The notes under the pieces are model-generated. The model was not told the origin of the DNA, ran no database searches, and worked only from the letters and a program-made list of their open reading frames with translations. Below, in pieces: positions 2,951-31,877 of a DNA stretch of 64,000 nucleotides. Each line of letters starts with the position of its first letter. The stretch's first letter is position 1. The stretch comes from an uncultured Actinomycetota bacterium (GTDB lineage: Bacteria; Actinomycetota; Actinomycetes; Propionibacteriales; Nocardioidaceae), in the NCBI GenBank assembly GCA_963830145.1, contig CAWHLI010000014.1:8400-72399 (forward strand). The letters are read 5' to 3'. The position numbers and the translations under genes are program-made.

Positions 2951-5679
2951 GCCAACAGCTCCGCGAGGTGCAGGGCCGGCACGCCGGCCAGGTCGTCGAG
3001 CTGGACCCGGCAGGACATGCCGTCGGCCAGGACGACCGCGCCGGGATGGGCGCGCACCGCGGGCAGCAGATGCGTCTCGGCGACCGCGACCGAGACCTCG
3101 TAGTGGCCCTTCTCCATGCCGAAGTTGCCCGCCAGGCCGCAGCAGCCCGCGACCCGGGTCACGGTCGCGCCGGCGCGCTCGAGCAGCGCCTGGTCGGCGG
3201 CCCAGCCGATCACCGCGTGGTGGTGGCAGTGCGGCTGGGCGACCACCTCGACACCGGTGAGGTCCGGCAGTGGGAGCCGCTCGCGCTCGACGAGCTCGGC
3301 GAGGCTGAGCAGGTCGAGGCTCTGGCCGGTCAGCTCGACGGCGTCGCTGCGCAGCGTGGCCAGGCAGCTCGGCTCCAGCCCGATGACGGGCAGGCCCGAC
3401 GCGACGTAGGGCGCCAGGGTGGCGACCGTGCGGGCCATGATCCGCTGCGCCTCGTCGAGCTGGCCGGTGGTGATCCACGTGAGCCCGCAGCAGGCGTCGT
3501 CGGGGATCACCCGCGCGGTCAGCCCTGCCGACTCGAGGTAGCGGATCGCGGCGTGCCCGTTGGCCGGGAAGAAGTGGTCGCTGAAGGAGTCGGCCCAGAT
3601 CCAGACGTCGGGAGTCCCGCTGCTCCTGGCCACCGACCGGCGCAGCGTCTTGGGCGCGAACGCCGGGATCGAGCGGCGCTGGTCGATCCCGGCCGCGGCC
3701 CTGGCGAGCCGCGCGAAGGGCTCGAGCCGCATCATCTGGTTGGTCAGCCGTGCGGCAGGGGCGGCCCGGTCGGCCCACACCGGCAGCCGGCCCAGCAGCC
3801 GGTGGCTGCGCGGGCGGCGCACGCCCTCGACGTCGTGCTTCTGGTGCAGGGCCTCGGCCTTGTAGGTCGCCATGTCCACGCCGGTGGGACAGTCGGACGC
3901 GCAGCCCTTGCAGGCCAGGCAGAGGTCGAGCGCCTCGGCGACGGCGGGGTCGGCGAACCCCTTGACCAGGCTCCCGTCGATCGCCTCCTGCAGCACCCGG
4001 GAGCGGCCGCGGGTGGAGTCCTTCTCGTCGCGGGTGGCCAGGTAGGACGGGCACATCACGCCCGTCGTCGACGGCGCGACGCACTTGCCGACACCGGTGC
4101 AGCGATGCACGGCGTTGCCGAGCTGGCCCCCGTCGTGCGGGAGCCGGACCACCGTCGTCACCGGGAGCCGCGGCCGGGTGGGCCGGAGATCGGCGTCGAG
4201 CGGCGCCGGGTCGACCAGGTTGCCGGGGTTGAGCAGGTTGCCGGGGTCGCAGATCGCCTTGACCCCGGCGAAGAGCCGGAGCGACTCCGCGTCGTACATC
4301 AGCGGCAGCAGCTCGGAGCGAGCCCGCCCGTCGCCGTGCTCGCCCGAGAGGGAGCCGCGGTGGTCGCGCAGCTTGACCGCGCAGGCGGTGAGGAAGTCGC
4401 GGAACACCCGCGCCGAGCCGTCGTCACCGGGACGGAACGGGAAGTCGATCCGGACGTGCACGCAGCCGTCGCCGAAGTGCCCGTAGGGCACCCCGTCGAG
4501 GCCGTGCGCCGCGAGCAGCTCGTCGAAGTCGCGCAGCCAGGCGCCCAGCCGGTCGGGCGGCACCGCGGCGTCCTCCCACCCGGAGTACGCCGGGGTCGCG
4601 AGGCTGCGCGCCGCCAGCCCGGCGCCGTCCTCGCGGATCCGCCACAGCGCGGCAGCCTCACCGGCATCGCTCACGAGCCGGTGGCCGAGCGCGGCACTGA
4701 CACCGACGACCGTCGTGGCCAGGGCCGGCGCCTCCGCGCCCACGAGCTCGACGAACAGCCACCCCGCTCCCTGGGGGAGCTCGGGCACCGCGCTCCCCCG
4801 GGCCCGGACCAGGTCGACGATCCGGGCGTCCAGCCCCTCGCAGGCGATCATCGCGCCGCCGTGACCACCCGTGGCCGCCAGCAGGGCCGGCACGGCGTCC
4901 GCCGCGTCGACCATCGACGGGTAGCCCAGCACGACGAGCAACCGGTCGCCCGTGCCGTCGACCAGCCGCACCGTGGCCTCGCGAACGACCGCGAGGGTGC
5001 CCTCCGAGCCGACCAGGAACCGGTCGACGCTCCGGCGCTCGGGCAGCAGGTGCTCGAGTGAGTAGCCGCTCACCTGCCGGCCGAAGCGACCGAACTCCGT
5101 CCGCACGTGCGCGAGGTGCTGGTCGGCGAGGGCGCCGAGCTGCGTCTCGACGTCGACGGCACCCGGCCCCCAGGCGACGTCCAGGCCGACCACGTTGTCC
5201 GACGTCCGGCCGTAGCCGAGCGCGCGCGAGCCGCAGGCGTTGTTGCCGATCATCCCGCCGATCGTGCAGCGCGTGTGCGTCGACGGGTCGGGGCCGAACC
5301 GCAGCCCGTACGGCGCCGCGGCCCGTTGCAGGTCGGCGTGGACGACACCGGGCTCGACGACCGCGGTCCGCGCCTCCGCGTCGACCGAGACGACCCGGTT
5401 GAGGTGCTTGAGGGTGTCGACGACGATGCCCGGGCCGACCGCGTTCCCGGCGATCGACGTGCCGGCCCCACGCATGGTGACCGGCACGCCGGTGGTGTGC
5501 GCGACGTCGAGGATCGCGTCGAGCTCGTCGGCCGCCCTGGGCCGCACCACGACCCTCGGGACCACGCGGTAGAGCGAGGCGTCCGAGGAGTAGAGCGCCC
5601 GGGTGAGCACCGAGTCGTCGACGTCGCTGACACCTCGTTTCCGCAGCTCTTCCAGGAGATCCTGAGAGCCGGCGGTCAC
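2935..5679 (-). CDS. FAD-binding and 4Fe-4S/CCG-domain oxidoreductase (fused GlcD+GlcF-like 2-hydroxyacid dehydrogenase)
   Basis: FAD_binding_4 (RGAGTSIAG, CTIGGMIGNNA), GEHGDG, CTGVGKC and CLACKGCASDCP clusters, CCG motifs. Confidence 0.85.
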   Translation of the reverse strand: MTAGSQDLLEELRKRGVSDVDDSVLTRALYSSDASLYRVVPRVVVRPRAADELDAILDVAHTTGVPVTMRGAGTSIAGNAVGPGIVVDTLKHLNRVVSVDAEARTAVVEPGVVHADLQRAAAPYGLRFGPDPSTHTRCTIGGMIGNNACGSRALGYGRTSDNVVGLDVAWGPGAVDVETQLGALADQHLAHVRTEFGRFGRQVSGYSLEHLLPERRSVDRFLVGSEGTLAVVREATVRLVDGTGDRLLVVLGYPSMVDAADAVPALLAATGGHGGAMIACEGLDARIVDLVRARGSAVPELPQGAGWLFVELVGAEAPALATTVVGVSAALGHRLVSDAGEAAALWRIREDGAGLAARSLATPAYSGWEDAAVPPDRLGAWLRDFDELLAAHGLDGVPYGHFGDGCVHVRIDFPFRPGDDGSARVFRDFLTACAVKLRDHRGSLSGEHGDGRARSELLPLMYDAESLRLFAGVKAICDPGNLLNPGNLVDPAPLDADLRPTRPRLPVTTVVRLPHDGGQLGNAVHRCTGVGKCVAPSTTGVMCPSYLATRDEKDSTRGRSRVLQEAIDGSLVKGFADPAVAEALDLCLACKGCASDCPTGVDMATYKAEALHQKHDVEGVRRPRSHRLLGRLPVWADRAAPAARLTNQMMRLEPFARLARAAAGIDQRRSIPAFAPKTLRRSVARSSGTPDVWIWADSFSDHFFPANGHAAIRYLESAGLTARVIPDDACCGLTWITTGQLDEAQRIMARTVATLAPYVASGLPVIGLEPSCLATLRSDAVELTGQSLDLLSLAELVERERLPLPDLTGVEVVAQPHCHHHAVIGWAADQALLERAGATVTRVAGCCGLAGNFGMEKGHYEVSVAVAETHLLPAVRAHPGAVVLADGMSCRVQLDDLAGVPALHLAELLAQALR

Positions 5680-23925: not shown

Positions 23926-25079
23926 TGGTCGCTCCCGTCGTCCACGGCCACGAGGCCACCCAGGGTCTGGTCATAGGCGGGGCGCTCCGCGGTCGGTGCC
24001 CCGAACGGCGCCGACCGCTTGAGCACCGTCCCGGCGAGGTTGCAGAGCTGCCCGCTCTTGTCCACCTGGCTCAGGAAGCCGCACACCAGCGTCTCCGGGT
24101 CGGACGCGATCTGGTCGACCAGCTCGCCGAGGTTGGCGTTGGTGTCGAGGGTGCCGGCCTGCGGGTTGTAGGTCAGCGCCAGGTTGTTCAGCGCCAGCGG
24201 CGCGTTCGTGAGCGTCTCGTCGAGCGCCGCGCGCTGCTTGACCAGCACCTTGGCGACCCGGTTGATGTGCGTGATGTTCTTGCCGAGGATCTCGCGGTTG
24301 TCCTTCACGAAGGTCGCGACGTCGCCCAGCCCGACCGACAGGTTGTGCAGCGCGGCGGCCAGCTCCTCCTTCTCCCCGGAGAGCAGGTCGGAGACGTCGG
24401 AGAGCGACTGGTTGAACTGCCGCACGGTCTTGTCGTTGGTGGCCAGGGTGCTGATGAAGCCCTCGAGCTCACGCGCGGAGCCGAACAGCGCCTCCTTGTT
24501 GTCGTCGAGGGTCTGGCTCAGGTCGCTGAAGTCCTCGATGGTCTGGTGGAACTGCGCGCCCTGGCCGCCGAAGTTCTCGGCCGTGGTGGCGAGCAGGTCG
24601 GAGAGCGCGCCGTTCTTGTTGGCGCCGTTGGGGCCGAGCGCGACGTTGAGCTGGTCGAGGCTGGAGTAGATCTGGTCGAGCTCCAGCGGTACGCCGGTGT
24701 CCTGGTCCTGGAGGACGGCGCCGTCGGCGAGCCTGGGCCCGTCCTCGTAGACGGGAGTCAGCTGGATGAAGCGGTCGCCGACGATGGACGGCGACACGAT
24801 CACGGCCTGCGCGTCGGCCGGGATCTTGACGTTGGCGTCGTAGTGCATCTCGACGACGACGTCGGTGCCGGTCGGCGTGACCGTGTCGACCGCTCCGACC
24901 TGGACCCCCAGCACCTTGACCGGGCTGCCCTCGTAGAGGGAGATGGTGCGCGGGAAGTGCGCGGTCAGCTTCTTGGTGTCGTCGCCGCCGAGGAACATCG
25001 TCATCCCCGCCGCCACGACCAGCGCGAGGAGGCAGAGCGGGACGATCGCCCGCCTGGCCAGGTTGGCAGAGCCGCTCAT
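23922..25079 (-). CDS. mceD: MCE-family protein MceD
   Basis: LYEGSPVKVLGVQVG; SIVGDRFIQL. Confidence 0.85.
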   Translation of the reverse strand: MSGSANLARRAIVPLCLLALVVAAGMTMFLGGDDTKKLTAHFPRTISLYEGSPVKVLGVQVGAVDTVTPTGTDVVVEMHYDANVKIPADAQAVIVSPSIVGDRFIQLTPVYEDGPRLADGAVLQDQDTGVPLELDQIYSSLDQLNVALGPNGANKNGALSDLLATTAENFGGQGAQFHQTIEDFSDLSQTLDDNKEALFGSARELEGFISTLATNDKTVRQFNQSLSDVSDLLSGEKEELAAALHNLSVGLGDVATFVKDNREILGKNITHINRVAKVLVKQRAALDETLTNAPLALNNLALTYNPQAGTLDTNANLGELVDQIASDPETLVCGFLSQVDKSGQLCNLAGTVLKRSAPFGAPTAERPAYDQTLGGLVAVDDGSDQ

Positions 25080-26056
25080 CCGACCCCACCACCGTTCAGC
25101 AGGTCGGGTGCGGGAGGCATGTTCTGGATGTAGGTGTCGAACCACGGCCCGTTGCCGAGGGTGTTGGCGAAGACCCGGTAGAAGGGAGCCATCAGCCGCA
25201 GGCTGTTGTCGATGTTGTCCTCGTTCTTGTTGAGGATGCCGACGACGTCGTCGAGCTGGGTCAGCGCCGGCTTGAGGTCGTCGCGGCTCTGGCGCACGAG
25301 CGCACTCAGCTCGGAGGAGAGCGTCGAGGTCGACACGAGGATGTTGTGCACCGCCTCCCGGCGGGCCACCAGCGCCTGGAAGAGGGTGTCGGACTGCTTC
25401 ATCAGGTCGACGATGTCCTCGTCGCGGTCGTTGAGCACCGTGGAGACCCGCTCCAGGTTGGTGAGCAGCAGGTTGATCCGGCCGCTCTTGTCCGCGATGT
25501 TGGCCGAGAGCCGTGAGACCCCGGACAGGGCCGCCTGGAACTCCTCGGGCGTGTTGCGGGTCAGGTCGGACAGCGTGGTCAGCGAGCGGGCCAGCTGGTC
25601 GGTGTCGATCTGGTCGGCAGTCTCGGCGAGTCCGGAGAACGCCTTGACCACGTCGTAGGGCGAGCTGGTGCGCTCGACCGGGATCTGGTCGTCGCTCTTG
25701 AGCTGGCCGTCGCCGGCGGGTTCGAGGGCGAGGTACATCGCGCCGAGCAGGGTGTTGACCCGGATCGAGGCGCCGGTCTCGTCGCCGAACTCCGAGTCGG
25801 TCTTGACCCGGAAGGAGACCGTCACGTGGTCTCCGTCGAGCTCGATCTTGTCGACGGCACCCACGCGGACACCGGCGATGCGGACCGGGTCGTTGGTCTT
25901 GAGCCCTCCGGCCTCGGCGAAGGCGGCCGTGTAGGTGTCACCACCGCCGATCACCGGCAGGTCCTGGGCGCGGAACGCGCCGAGGATCAGGACCGCGATG
26001 ACGGCGAGGCTGATCGCCCCGATGATCACGGGGTTGCGCTCGCGAAAGGGCTTCAT
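25076..26056 (-). CDS. mceC: MCE-family protein MceC
   Basis: MKPFRERNP start; FAEAGGLKTNDPVRIAGVRVG; TLLGAMYL. Confidence 0.88.
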   Translation of the reverse strand: MKPFRERNPVIIGAISLAVIAVLILGAFRAQDLPVIGGGDTYTAAFAEAGGLKTNDPVRIAGVRVGAVDKIELDGDHVTVSFRVKTDSEFGDETGASIRVNTLLGAMYLALEPAGDGQLKSDDQIPVERTSSPYDVVKAFSGLAETADQIDTDQLARSLTTLSDLTRNTPEEFQAALSGVSRLSANIADKSGRINLLLTNLERVSTVLNDRDEDIVDLMKQSDTLFQALVARREAVHNILVSTSTLSSELSALVRQSRDDLKPALTQLDDVVGILNKNEDNIDNSLRLMAPFYRVFANTLGNGPWFDTYIQNMPPAPDLLNGGGVG

Positions 26057-26130
26057 GGCGTTTCCGAGGTCCCCGCGGAAGAGTGCCCGCACGTGCGAAG
26101 CACCCCCGCAGTCTTTCGTGGGGTGGTCAT
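26053..26130 (-). CDS. Mini-ORF (25 aa) bridging mceB and mceC
   Basis: MTTPRKTAGVLRTCGHSSAGTSETP; ATGA overlap with the mceB stop and with the mceC start. Confidence 0.55.
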   Translation of the reverse strand: MTTPRKTAGVLRTCGHSSAGTSETP

Positions 26131-27158
26131 CCGAGATCACACCTGGGGGAGCCGGTGTTGTAGGCCACCGGGACCGTGAGCCCGGGCAGCTTGACCTTGC
26201 CCTGGAACTGGCAGAGGTAGAAGTTGAACCACGAGCCGTAGATGGCGGTCCGGCCGACCTTCTCGAGCTTGATCGGCAGCACCTGCAGGGCCCGGTCGAG
26301 CTCGCCCCGGTTGCGCTGGATGTTGGCGGTCAGCTTGCGCAGGTTGGCGATGTCGTCGACCAGGGGCGAGCGGATCCCCTTGACCAGCGACGCGGTCTGC
26401 ACCGAGAGCTCGGAGATCTGGTCGAGCGAGCCCAGGATCGCCTCACGGTCGCTGTTGAGGCCGCCCACGAACTGGCGGAACGTCGTGATCAGCTGGTTGA
26501 GCTGCTGGTCGCGGTCGGCGACGTGGTCGAGCACCTCGCTCAGGTTGTCGATGAGGGCGCTGATCACCTGGTCGCGGTCGGCCAGCGTGTTGGTCACCGA
26601 CGCGGTGTGGGCCAGCAGGCTCTCGAGGGTGCCCCCCTCGCCCTGGAAGACCTGGACGATCTCGTAGGACAGCTGGTTGATGTCGGCGGGGCTGAGCGCC
26701 TGGAAGAGCGGCTTGAACCCGTTGAAGAGCACGGTGAGGTCGAGCGCCGGCGCCGTGCGGGCGATGGGGATCGTCTCGCCGCCGGACATCTTGGTGGACG
26801 AGCCGACCTGCTGGGTCAGGGCGATGTAGCGCTGGCCGACGAGGTTGCGGTACTTGATCGTGGCGTGGGTCGCCTCGGTGACCACGGTCGAGTCGTCGAC
26901 GGAGAACGTGATGAGCGCGCGGGTGCGGTCGGTGATCGCGACGTCCTTGACGGTGCCGACCTTGACGCCCGCGACCCGGATGTCGTCACCCTTGTTGACG
27001 CCGGTGGCGTCACCGAAGACCGCCTTGTAGGTCGAGGAGCCGGCGAAGCTCAGGTTGCCGATCGTGGCCACCAGCACGCCGGTGGCGAGCGTGGTCACCA
27101 CCATGAAGATCACCAGCTTGACGAGGTCGCCGGCAGTCTTCTTGTCCAGGAGCTTCAC
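26127..27158 (-). CDS. mceB: MCE-family protein MceB
   Basis: DATGVNKGDDIRVAGVKVG; YRNLVGQRY; GSWFNFYLC. Confidence 0.88.
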   Translation of the reverse strand: MKLLDKKTAGDLVKLVIFMVVTTLATGVLVATIGNLSFAGSSTYKAVFGDATGVNKGDDIRVAGVKVGTVKDVAITDRTRALITFSVDDSTVVTEATHATIKYRNLVGQRYIALTQQVGSSTKMSGGETIPIARTAPALDLTVLFNGFKPLFQALSPADINQLSYEIVQVFQGEGGTLESLLAHTASVTNTLADRDQVISALIDNLSEVLDHVADRDQQLNQLITTFRQFVGGLNSDREAILGSLDQISELSVQTASLVKGIRSPLVDDIANLRKLTANIQRNRGELDRALQVLPIKLEKVGRTAIYGSWFNFYLCQFQGKVKLPGLTVPVAYNTGSPRCDLG

Positions 27159-28483
27159 GGCGTCTCACCGCCGCCCGGTGAGTCGGCATAGGTGACCGTC
27201 GTGCCGCGGACCATCGGCCCGAGCAGCAGCCCGCCCAGGTCCGAGACCGCCGGGGCGTCCTCCCCCATCGTGGGCGCGAGCAGCGAGGCGATCAGCGCGC
27301 TCTCCTCCGGCGAACCGGCGTAGGAGCTCAACACGTCGACCGACGGGTCCGCGGCGTACGACGTGCCGACCCGGTCGGTGCCCTTGCCGGTCGGGCTGTC
27401 GACCCCGTCGACGAAGTCGGGCTGGCGGCGGACCGGGTTGGACTGGTTCCACGGCGGGTTGGGCAGGTGGAGGCAGGTCGGGCCGCGGTCCTCGCCGTAG
27501 ACCGGCTTGTCGGCGGCGGTGTAGCCGCGCGGCTGGTTGGGGAGCGTCTCGAGGACGATGTGCAGGGTGAAGCCGCGGAACGCCTCGGCCTCCATCTTGC
27601 CGTTGTTGACCAGGCCTCCGAGCAGGCACGGGAACTCCGTCGAGTAGCGCGCCAGGACCCGGAGCTGGGCCCGGCTGACCTCGCCGAGCCGGATCAGGTT
27701 GTCGCCGTTGTCGTCGAGGAAGGTGCGCGCCGTCCCGGAGAACTGGGTGATGTCGCTGAGGAGCTGGTGCAGCTTGGCCTCGCGGGTCTCGAGGGTGCTG
27801 GTGGTCGTGACGGTGTTGTGCAGGACGTCGCCGACCTGGGGCAGCACCTCGGCGTAGGTGTCGGAGACCGATGCGGTCAGACGGAGGTCCTCGACCAGCG
27901 CCGGGATCTGCGGGTTGAGCCGCTTGAGGTAGCTGTCGACGGTCTCGAGGTTCTCGCCGATCTGGTCGCCGCGGCCCTCGAGGGCGGTGGCCAGCGCGTT
28001 GAGCGTCTGGTTGAGCTCGGCCGGCTCGACCGTGCGCAGCAGGGGGTAGAGGTCGGAGAGCACCTTCTCGACCTCGGTCGAGACCGCCGTGCGCTTGATC
28101 GTGTCGCCGGCGCGGATCGGCGACGCCTCCGCGTCGTCGGGGATGATGAGGGAGACGTACTTCTCGCCGAACAGCGTCTTGGGCACGATCGAGGCGGTGA
28201 CGTTGGCGGGGATCGTGTCGATCTGGCTCGGGAAGAGTCCCAGGGTCAGCACGGCGCCGTCGGAGGTCGCGCTCATGTCGAGCACCTCGCCCACGATGAC
28301 GCCCCGGATCTTCACATCGGCGCGGGCGGGGAGCTGCAGGCCGATGTTGGTCGTCTGGACCTTGACCCGGTCGTAGTCGGTGAACTTCTTCGTGAACGTC
28401 GCGTAGACCAGGTAGCCGGCGAGGACGACCATCGCCAGGAAGACGATGCCGAGGATCTTGTGCTGGCGGGTGATGAAGCTCAT
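27155..28483 (-). CDS. mceA: MCE-family protein MceA
   Basis: GLQLPARADVKIRGVIVG; PKTLFGEKYV. Confidence 0.88.
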   Translation of the reverse strand: MSFITRQHKILGIVFLAMVVLAGYLVYATFTKKFTDYDRVKVQTTNIGLQLPARADVKIRGVIVGEVLDMSATSDGAVLTLGLFPSQIDTIPANVTASIVPKTLFGEKYVSLIIPDDAEASPIRAGDTIKRTAVSTEVEKVLSDLYPLLRTVEPAELNQTLNALATALEGRGDQIGENLETVDSYLKRLNPQIPALVEDLRLTASVSDTYAEVLPQVGDVLHNTVTTTSTLETREAKLHQLLSDITQFSGTARTFLDDNGDNLIRLGEVSRAQLRVLARYSTEFPCLLGGLVNNGKMEAEAFRGFTLHIVLETLPNQPRGYTAADKPVYGEDRGPTCLHLPNPPWNQSNPVRRQPDFVDGVDSPTGKGTDRVGTSYAADPSVDVLSSYAGSPEESALIASLLAPTMGEDAPAVSDLGGLLLGPMVRGTTVTYADSPGGGETP

Positions 28484-28536
28484 GGCGTCTCACCGTGGGG
28501 CACAGCCGCGCCCACCGCAGTCCCTGGGTTGGTCAT
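28480..28536 (-). CDS. Mini-ORF (18 aa) bridging yrbEB and mceA
   Basis: MTNPGTAVGAAVPHGETP; ATGA overlap with the yrbEB stop and with the mceA start. Confidence 0.55.
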   Translation of the reverse strand: MTNPGTAVGAAVPHGETP

Positions 28537-29360
28537 CCGGCCAACCTCACCGTGGTGGTGGCGCCCCAGATGGCCATCGACAGGAGCAGGTCGATGACGT
28601 TGATGGCGACGATGCTGGTCCGGACCGCGCGGCCCACGGCGACGCCCACGCCGGCGGGGCCGCCGCCGGCGTTGTAGCCGTAGTAGCAGTGGATCAGGAT
28701 CACGACGACGGCGAAGACCAGCACCTTGCCGAAGGACCAGAGCACGTCGCCGGGAGGCAGGAACTGGTTGAAGTACTGGTCATAGGTGCCGGTGCTCTGG
28801 CCGAAGAACTGGGTGACCACCAGGCGGCTCGCGAAGTAGGACGAGAGCAGGCCCACGACGTAGAGGGGGATGATCGCGATCAGCCCGCCGATGATGCGCG
28901 TGGTGACGAGGAAGGGCAGCGACGGGATCGCCATCACCTCGAGCGCGTCGACCTCCTCGGAGATCCGCATCGCGCCGAGCTGTGCGGTGAAGCCGCAGCC
29001 GACGGTGGCGGCCAGGCCGATCGCCGCCACCAGCGGAGCGATCTCCCGGGTGTTGAAGTAGGCGGAGACGAAGCCGGCGAGCTGGGCGGTGCCGAGCTGG
29101 TCGAGCGCCGCGAACCCCTGGAGCCCCACCTCGGTGCCGGTGAAGAAGCACAGCGCGATGATGACGCCGACCGTGCCGCCGATGACCGCGAGCGCGCCCG
29201 AGCCGAGCGTGGTCTCGGCCAGGATCCGCAGGATCTCCTTCTTGTAGCGGACGATCGTGCGCGGGGTCCACGCGAGCGCGCGGACATAGAAGCTGAGCTG
29301 GTCCCCGAGGTCTTCGAGGAATCCCGCCGGCTTCGTGTAGATCGCCTTGAGACTCGCCAT
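28533..29360 (-). CDS. yrbEB: MlaE-family permease YrbEB
   Basis: REIAPLVA, GFTAQLGAMRISEEVDALEVM, GGGPAGVGVAVG. Confidence 0.9.
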   Translation of the reverse strand: MASLKAIYTKPAGFLEDLGDQLSFYVRALAWTPRTIVRYKKEILRILAETTLGSGALAVIGGTVGVIIALCFFTGTEVGLQGFAALDQLGTAQLAGFVSAYFNTREIAPLVAAIGLAATVGCGFTAQLGAMRISEEVDALEVMAIPSLPFLVTTRIIGGLIAIIPLYVVGLLSSYFASRLVVTQFFGQSTGTYDQYFNQFLPPGDVLWSFGKVLVFAVVVILIHCYYGYNAGGGPAGVGVAVGRAVRTSIVAINVIDLLLSMAIWGATTTVRLAG

Positions 29361-31338: not shown

Positions 31339-31378
31339 GCTGCGGCGGTCGTCTCCCGGAGGAGACGACCGCCGCAGC
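31339..31378 (-). terminator. Intrinsic terminator after rplL
   Basis: Perfect 18-bp stem, CGGA loop, followed by TGTTTGT on the minus strand. Confidence 0.8.
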
Positions 31379-31481
31379 GGGTCGTGCAGCAGGCGGCGAG
31401 GCCGCCCCAGCCCACCCCACGCAACCGCGGGGAGGGCCCTCCGGGATCAGCCCACGCTTGCGCGGGGACCCCGGAGAAGCG

Positions 31482-31877
31482 TCACTTGACGGTGACGGTG
31501 GCCCCGGCGCCCTCGAGCGCCTCCTTGGCCTTGTCGGCGGCAGCCTTGTCGACGCCCTCGAGGATCGGCTTCGGCGCGGCCTCGACGAGGTCCTTGGCCT
31601 CCTTCAGACCGAGGGAGGTCAGCGCGCGCACCTCCTTGATGACGTTGATCTTCTTCTCGCCGGCGGCCTCGAGGACCACGTCGAACTGGTCCTGCTCGGC
31701 AGCGTCGTCGCCACCAGCGGCGGCAGCGCCGCCCGCGGCGGGAGCGGCGGCCACGGCGACCGGGGCGGCCGCGGTGACGCCGAACGTCTCCTCGAACTGC
31801 TTCACGAACTCGGAGAGCTCGATCAGCGTCATCTCCTTGAACGCGTCGAGCAGCTCGTCGGTGTTGAGCTTCGCCAT
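31482..31877 (-). CDS. rplL: 50S ribosomal protein L7/L12
   Basis: [33 protein letters not shown]. Confidence 0.98.

Follow-up and report, generated by a model that had tools for sequence, protein, structure and literature searches.

Mycobacterial interspersed repetitive units (MIRUs) are repeats of 40–100 bp that occur in 40–50 copies per genome, with both empty and filled sites, tetranucleotide direct repeats, imperfect terminal inverted repeats and open reading frames (ORFs) that overlap the adjacent genes (Delihas, 2011, PMC3184786). They appear to be mobile and to insert at start codons (2025 review, PMC12548453), and their design is taken here from the accounts that PMC12548453 and PMC3184786 give of Supply et al. 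(1997, Mol Microbiol 26:991). We analyzed a 64,000-nucleotide stretch of DNA (hereafter, the window) from an uncultured actinobacterium of the Nocardioidaceae (assembly GCA_963830145.1, contig CAWHLI010000014.1, positions 8,400–72,399), in which two mini-ORFs, called here mini1 and mini2, link neighboring genes of an mce operon. We conclude with good confidence that mini2 belongs to a MIRU-like interspersed repeat found in Nocardioides-type actinobacteria, as very probably does mini1, and that neither is part of the Mce machine. This repeat forms a family with a defined position, preserves its reading frame and occupies its sites variably. The designation MIRU-like refers to the kind of element, as judged by the features described for it, and not to sequence homology.

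The likeness to MIRUs covers a length of 40–100 bp and tens of copies (here, 50–58), a location between co-oriented operon genes with the ends of the small ORF overlapping the flanking stop and start at −4 spacing, the existence of empty and filled sites with a tetranucleotide direct repeat, imperfect terminal inverted repeats, GC-rich internal repeats and tandem arrays, the last of these found here in relatives. MIRU classes of 77 and 53 bp are known, and these are also two periods seen here. In contrast to MIRUs, the hosts of the present element are Nocardioidaceae, plus Knoellia, Flexivirga and Propionicimonas, and its termini are distinct and well defined (nCACCCCACGA ... GGGGACCCCG). The initial annotation, made from the sequence of the window, knew of no description of such an arrangement in mce operons; the design is nonetheless the one reported for mycobacterial MIRUs (PMC12548453, PMC3184786). 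For this particular sequence family we found no published description, and a literature search for MIRU-like elements of Nocardioides or Knoellia gave nothing relevant.

The mini-ORFs and the genes they touch are encoded on the minus strand, which is the strand of the mce operon; gene identities were assigned by Pfam:

26053..26130, minus strand: mini2, one full repeat copy with a period of 74 nt and a putative relay ORF of 25 codons, ATGA at both ends
28480..28536, minus strand: mini1, very probably a shortened, diverged copy with a period of 53 nt and a putative relay ORF of 18 codons, ATGA at both ends
28533..29360, minus strand: yrbEB, MlaE-type permease (Pfam MlaE, E=1e-63), its TGA inside the head ATGA of mini1
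27155..28483, minus strand: mceA (Pfam MlaD and Mce4_CUP1), its ATG inside the tail ATGA of mini1
26127..27158, minus strand: mceB (Pfam), its TGA inside the head ATGA of mini2
25076..26056, minus strand: mceC (Pfam), its ATG inside the tail ATGA of mini2

The genes from yrbEB onward to the end of the operon are all joined by (A/G)TGA overlaps, except that there are two gaps, each filled exactly by a mini-ORF running from ATGA to ATGA; our reading of the junctions agrees in this with the initial annotation. The 3′ end of yrbEB is GCC GGA TGA, with the stop at 28535–28533 overlapped by the ATG at 28536, from which the mini1 frame reads MTNPGTAVGAAVPHGETP up to a TGA (28482–28480) that overlaps the mceA ATG at 28483. 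Likewise, mceB ends with CTC GGA TGA, its stop (26129–26127) is overlapped by the ATG at 26130, and the mini2 frame reads MTTPRKTAGVLRTCGHSSAGTSETP before a TGA (26055–26053) that overlaps the mceC ATG at 26056.

The family was found by searching the source genome for the head motif common to both mini-ORFs, which returned many look-alikes. A covariance model (R1) built from 26 copies, with mini1 and mini2 left out, matched mini2 end to end with 62.4 bits (E=1.3e-14), and the nhmmer match of mini2 has E=5e-11. Further copies, which the initial annotation proposed to look for at ATGA junctions, proved to be numerous: the source genome holds 50 copies of the repeat by iterated nhmmer and 58 by the covariance model. 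Their consensus is (A/G)TGA-nCACCCCACGAAACCGC...GCGC..CGCGCGG...CGCTTCCGCGGGGACCCCGGAAAAGC-(A/G)TGA, with heads of the form (A/G)TGA-nCACCCCACGA and tails of the form GGGGACCCCG...(A/G)TGA; the conserved tail that is paired with the head RTGA-nCACCCCACGA can also be given as CGCGGGGACCCCG...RTGA. The length, or period, of the element ranges from 53 to 116 nt, and 77 nt is the commonest in the source genome. At junctions, the copies share the orientation of the flanking genes and are seated on an RTGA start codon or stop/start overlap, so that a TGA stands at both ends. In approximately two thirds of the source-genome copies, the head TGA is the stop of one long ORF and the tail NTG the start of another.

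Empty and filled versions of the same site could be compared in the mceA neighborhoods of 28 related genomes, in which the junctions were located by tblastn. In most congeners, mceB and mceC meet at a bare ATGA overlap (e.g., ...AGGTGTGATCTCGGATGAAGCCCTTCCGCGAGCGCAAC) followed by the same MKPFRERNP start, and about 20 related mce operons are devoid of any linker at this position. With respect to such an empty junction, the window carries a 74-nt insertion, ATGA[CCACCCC...ACGCCATGA]AGCCC. The junction is filled in three other genomes, by copies of different subfamilies: two tandem units of 35 and 71 nt in G017, one 71-nt unit in G010 and one 108-nt unit in G002. On a tree of yrbEB, mceA and mceB, four changes are required to account for the filled state in these three genomes and the window, and well-supported branches force at least two of the four. 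At the yrbEB-mceA junction, the relatives possess a spacer of 2–20 nt or an overlap, and no element. In turn, resB and ccsA are joined by a bare RTGA overlap in 12 congeners and by ATGA-element-ATGA, followed by the same MTDAAW start, in the source genome. The tetranucleotide thus stands once at the empty and at both ends of the filled mceB-mceC and resB-ccsA sites. Occupancy of orthologous sites is variable and sporadic among congeners, and a comparison of related mce operons, suggested at the outset, bears this out, with most sites empty and three others filled. Together with the 50–58 RTGA-bracketed copies, the bare congener junctions support the proposal of the initial annotation that a small element enters at ATGA with a 4-bp duplication and keeps the coupling of the genes. 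As a separate observation, mceC carries a short extension at the mceB-mceC junction of two sister genomes (L006, ~3809–3821; L008, ~3543–3561); in one of them it begins with ATGAACCAC, nine bases that are the head of the G017/G010-type element, and the extension may be a remnant of excision or truncation.

We measured the reading frame of 39 source-genome copies from the model ends, without ORF calling. Of these, 36 combine a period of 2 mod 3 with the absence of an in-frame stop; their periods are 77 (22 copies), 74 (7), 71 (4), 80 (2) and 59 nt (1), the exceptions having periods of 78, 81 and 58. Among the 17 copies that deviate from 77 nt, the length change is a multiple of three in 14. The G+C content at the three codon positions of the mini-ORFs is 0.71/0.71/0.73, vs. 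0.65/0.42/0.97 in the mce genes, and variability is equal across the three positions. The peptides are hydrophilic and have no membrane helix, and in seven copies the conserved 3′ box is read in another frame, giving PRGPRK and not FRGDP. Selection is on the open frame, its length and the nucleotide sequence of the ends, and not on the peptide.

These data bear on the idea, put forward in the initial annotation, that the mini-ORFs code for small subunits of Mce, or that they are relay ORFs specific to mce that evolved to set stoichiometry. Their site inside an otherwise fully coupled operon of a multi-subunit machine would fit such a role. Yet, most congeners have no linker at the orthologous junctions, the same element occupies more than 50 unrelated junctions, the codon-position signature of a protein gene is missing, with flat G+C content and equal variability, the peptides are hydrophilic and helix-free and the conserved box is read in more than one frame; we therefore consider this idea very improbable. 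Still less credible is that the linkers are artefacts, whether through a frameshift that split off the N-termini of MceA and MceC, through misassembly or through frames open by chance in GC-rich spacers. Short open frames do arise commonly by chance in DNA of 71% G+C, but mini2 matches an independent family model (E=1e-14) and the frame is kept across the whole family. Frameshifted N-termini, against which the initial annotation had cautioned, were not found: MceC begins with MKPFRERNP as do its orthologues, and an upstream extension of mceA is barred by an in-frame TGA located 9 nt before the ATG.

Several points weigh against the interpretation of both linkers as repeat copies. Taken by itself, mini1 does not reach significance with the family model, its match to R1, which runs end to end on exactly 28536–28480 and is the fourth best in the window, scoring 12.4 bits (E=0.58). 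The tail of mini1 agrees with the mceA-mceB junction in 15 of 16 nt, the stretch compared being the last 16 nt of mceA (27170–27155, CGGTGAGACGCCGTGA), and part of mini1 may be a local duplication. No transposase could be linked to the element, markers of the Y1 and IS5-type (DUF4096) enzymes being absent from copy-rich genomes. RNAalifold run on 29 copies gave essentially no consensus fold, and the folding energies of single copies were no better than those of dinucleotide shuffles (mean z −0.27). Finally, the ribosome relay presented below is deduced from the anatomy of the element.

As regards mini1, its relationship to mini2 is visible along the whole element: the two heads both read GGATGACCA(A/C)CCCA, GACTGCGG is common to both, and the tails are of the form GA(G/A)ACGCCATGA. 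After removal of the ATGA ends, the global alignment of the two scores 32.5, compared with 7.5 ± 5.7 for dinucleotide shuffles, none of 2,000 of which reached it; the resemblance pointed out in the initial annotation is thus real and above chance. The interior of mini1, again without the ATGA ends, is nearer to the whole family than 300 of 300 shuffles, with mini2 as its best match, and its head ATGACCAACCCA agrees with the family head at 11 of 12 positions. On these comparisons, mini1 is very probably a shortened, diverged relative of mini2.

Alternatively, mini1 may not be a repeat copy at all, but the product of a local duplication or gene conversion that brought the mceA-mceB junction, with its Shine-Dalgarno-like GGTGAG and start, to a position before mceA, the frame from ATGA to ATGA being open by chance. 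Such an origin would account for CGGTGAGACGCC(A/G)TGA, which, as the initial annotation observed, is common to the mini1 tail (28495–28480) and the end of mceA (27170–27155); GGTGAG is ancestral ahead of the mceB start, being present in relatives, the family model gives only the 12.4 bits mentioned, and blastn-short detected no second mini1-like short copy in the genome. We nevertheless regard it as unlikely, given the family-type head, an interior nearer to mini2 (0/2000 shuffles) and to the family (0/300) than expected, a period of 53 nt, which is 2 mod 3, and the occurrence elsewhere of short derivatives with internal deletions, e.g., the 35-nt unit in G017. A 12-mer common to mini1 and the mceA tail also occurs elsewhere by chance. 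The C-terminal tail of MceA itself (window positions 27155–27190, minus strand) is approximately nine codons longer than in orthologues, ending in ...TYADSPGGGETP vs. ...EVSLR; the additional part could be what is left of another repeat copy taken up by mceA, or the junction may have been duplicated locally.

For the linkers as repeat copies, the layout of the element suggests how an insertion might be accommodated. Termination-reinitiation at ATGA overlaps is an established route (PMC6728339, PMC12548453). The first bases of the element complete a start codon overlapping the upstream stop, its body supplies a stop-free frame and its last bases make a new ATGA, the ATG of which starts the downstream gene. 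A ribosome ending yrbEB or mceB would restart at the overlapping AUG, read 18–25 codons, melting the hairpin en route, terminate at the UGA that overlaps the AUG of mceA or mceC and restart there, and an insertion with such a relay would therefore leave translational coupling unbroken. The conserved end of mceB, AGGTGTGATCTCGGATGA, holds a Shine-Dalgarno-like AGGTG, and relatives have the same 3′ end followed directly by the mceC coding sequence. This AGGTG would have served mceC before the insertion and would now serve the mini-ORF, a shift that would make mceC more dependent on the relay. The arrangement recalls ATGA termination-reinitiation and synthetic bicistronic designs, in which a short leading ORF hands the ribosome to the gene of interest (PMC6728339, PMC12548453), except that the cassette found here is natural, repeated and apparently mobile.

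The ends of the element form an imperfect terminal inverted repeat, in which CCCC-A-CG-A-AA... faces ...TT-C-CG-C-GGGG; in mini2, 26123–26112 pairs with 26082–26071. The stem was drawn by hand and evaluated by pair counting: at alignment columns 8–20 and 53–65, 84.6% of positions are paired, slid partners give at most 50%, and 15 compensatory cells were counted, a number reached in 0 of 500 shuffles. The inner part of the stem differs complementarily between subfamilies, e.g., AAAGCGC/GCGCTT vs. CGTTCTTC/GAACAACG. The terminal stem alone passed the pair counting, and we do not claim a stable RNA structure. Forms of 62–71 nt have a GGGGA box that precedes the tail ATG by 6 nt, a Shine-Dalgarno-like spacing.

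From here it could be argued that the element is more than tolerated and that its copies are kept for tuning operons such as mce, a view compatible with the linkers being repeat copies. The covariation of the stem between subfamilies, the GGGGA box of the 62–71-nt forms and the maintenance of the family across several actinobacterial families speak for tuning; junction occupancy is, however, sporadic among congeners, there is no thermodynamic signal above shuffles, one copy lies antisense in a 3′ region without an ORF, and a role of the inverted repeat in transposition at the DNA level explains the covariation equally well. On balance, we find this role for the copies rather doubtful.

With regard to the source of mobility, the Y1 (HUH) transposase domain (PF01797) is absent from G000 and all copy-rich congeners and was detected in G018 only, which rules against an element of the REP/RAYT type or one derived from IS200/IS605. 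A miniature inverted-repeat transposable element (MITE) of an IS5-type element with TNA duplication was likewise rejected, on one marker domain: DUF4096 (PF13340), the sole IS5-type marker tested, is absent from G000, G006, G017 and G015 and shows no link with copy number. MITEs and other small repeats (Correia/CREE, RUP, ERIC, REP/BIME; PMC3184786) resemble the present element in being short, non-autonomous and dispersed, in their terminal inverted repeats and hairpin potential, and in a copy number that varies between relatives, but they sit in untranslated spacers, have TA or other target duplications and no relay ORF. REP sequences, moreover, depend on the RAYT (Y1) enzyme, whereas the element described here targets RTGA and keeps a 2 mod 3 frame. 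Rickettsia palindromic elements are also palindromic repeats that survive in translated sequence by means of an open frame; unlike them, the element forms a separate mini-cistron between genes, while the rickettsial ones are inserted within genes without breaking the frame and are translated into the protein.

The contexts in which copies lack an upstream gene are informative as to the target. A TANNNT motif is present 12–13 nt upstream of the mini-ORF start in 5 of the 11 copies lacking a preceding gene (background, 0.13%), so that leaderless start codons are also among the sites of the element. As these leaderless copies are bracketed by TGA where no upstream stop is needed, their anatomy suggests that (R)TGA is a target or duplication and not merely a feature kept by selection. 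At five source-genome loci (C1:284097, C3:487250, C3:519370, C18:50435, C3:603878), copies lie directly 3′ of a −10-like TANNNT with 6–7 nt to the mini-ORF start, and there, to judge from the DNA, the mini-ORF is probably the leaderless first cistron of the transcript. At five others (C10:217398, C9:50232, C8:59965, C28:114232, C3:493520), the frame of the copy continues into the downstream gene (a solute-binding lipoprotein gene, proB, a holB-like gene, gltX and others), and automated gene calling is likely to yield spurious N-terminal extensions, 25–30 residues long, at these loci.

Beside the operon linkers, one more copy was detected in the window; it is listed here together with the ATPase gene of the operon:

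31408..31484, plus strand: third repeat copy (R1, 38.5 bits, E=4e-8), at rplL (identified by Pfam)
about 31146-30165, minus strand: Mkl-type ABC ATPase (Pfam)

The third copy is antisense to the genes and lies between the rplL stop (31482–31484) and the perfect rplL terminator hairpin (~31345–31380). It has neither ATGA ends nor a relay ORF; thus, the frame is not maintained in copies that lie outside a coupling context. A search of the window against Rfam 15 yielded tRNAs only and nothing on mini2.

As for the remaining operon, it comprises two MlaE permease genes (yrbEA and yrbEB) and six MlaD/Mce4_CUP1 genes (mceA to mceF) according to Pfam, followed by a gene without a Pfam match and then a gene encoding a DnaJ-domain protein. 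The overlaps are GTGA at mceA-mceB, ATGA at mceC-mceD, GTGA at mceD-mceE and mceE-mceF, and GTGA again between mceF and the next gene and between the latter and the DnaJ-like gene. A 7-nt gap separates yrbEA from yrbEB, outside the chain of overlaps claimed in the initial annotation. An ORF-based background count of ATGA vs. GTGA overlaps was too contaminated by spurious frames and was not used.

We scanned other genomes, one per species, with a pattern that required only the head and the GGGGACCCCG box, and obtained 117 loci with 121 copies in many Nocardioides species, Marmoricola, Knoellia, Flexivirga and Propionicimonas. The tail NTGA overlaps a start in 104 of these copies; 97 have a downstream ORF of 60 codons or more, and in 86 the head TGA is the stop of an upstream ORF of 80 codons or more. 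The periods include 71, 65, 77, 62, 80 and 74 nt, among others. Among roughly 25 congeners, a genome has between 0 and 58 copies, whereas the set of 41 relatives shows no copy in other families of the order. Tandem arrays, none of which occurs in the window, are found at the mceB-mceC junction of G017 and at L065 (929–1122; three units), L119 (two units) and L123 (two units), the last three being perfect or near-perfect arrays of the 65-nt subfamily that resemble variable-number tandem repeats. A typical copy of this actinobacterial repeat is also present at L097 (CAVVYA010000015.1), a contig of a metagenome-assembled genome labelled as uncultured Alphaproteobacteria, which is probably mis-binned or mislabelled. 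In G014, two contigs (C4 and C6; loci L007 and L028) share the same yrbEB-mceA junction sequence and have near-identical match scores in the mceA region, reflecting either a recent duplication or an assembly duplicate.

For Mce biology, the outcome is negative, as the linkers are not transporter components. For annotation, the family explains odd "spacers" of 50–120 nt and spurious N-terminal extensions in Nocardioides-type genomes. How MIRUs move and why they are tolerated have been open questions since 1997, and the phenomenon is hardly documented in print outside mycobacteria. The present family may ease the study of the mechanism, with its sharp ends, clean empty and filled sites, the same ATGA hit repeatedly, 0 to 58 copies among congeners, and hosts that are not pathogens. 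As a bolder conjecture, which we think improbable as a whole, it might represent mobile DNA of an active class, which in several actinobacterial families would home to start codons and stop/start overlaps of the form RTGA by means of an enzyme of neither the Y1 nor the IS5 type and would share ancestry with the mycobacterial MIRUs; its hairpin and mini-ORF would then make downstream translation strictly dependent on upstream translation, and gain or loss of copies would re-tune subunit ratios in operons such as mce. The family is also a natural test of whether a short relay ORF suffices for translational coupling.

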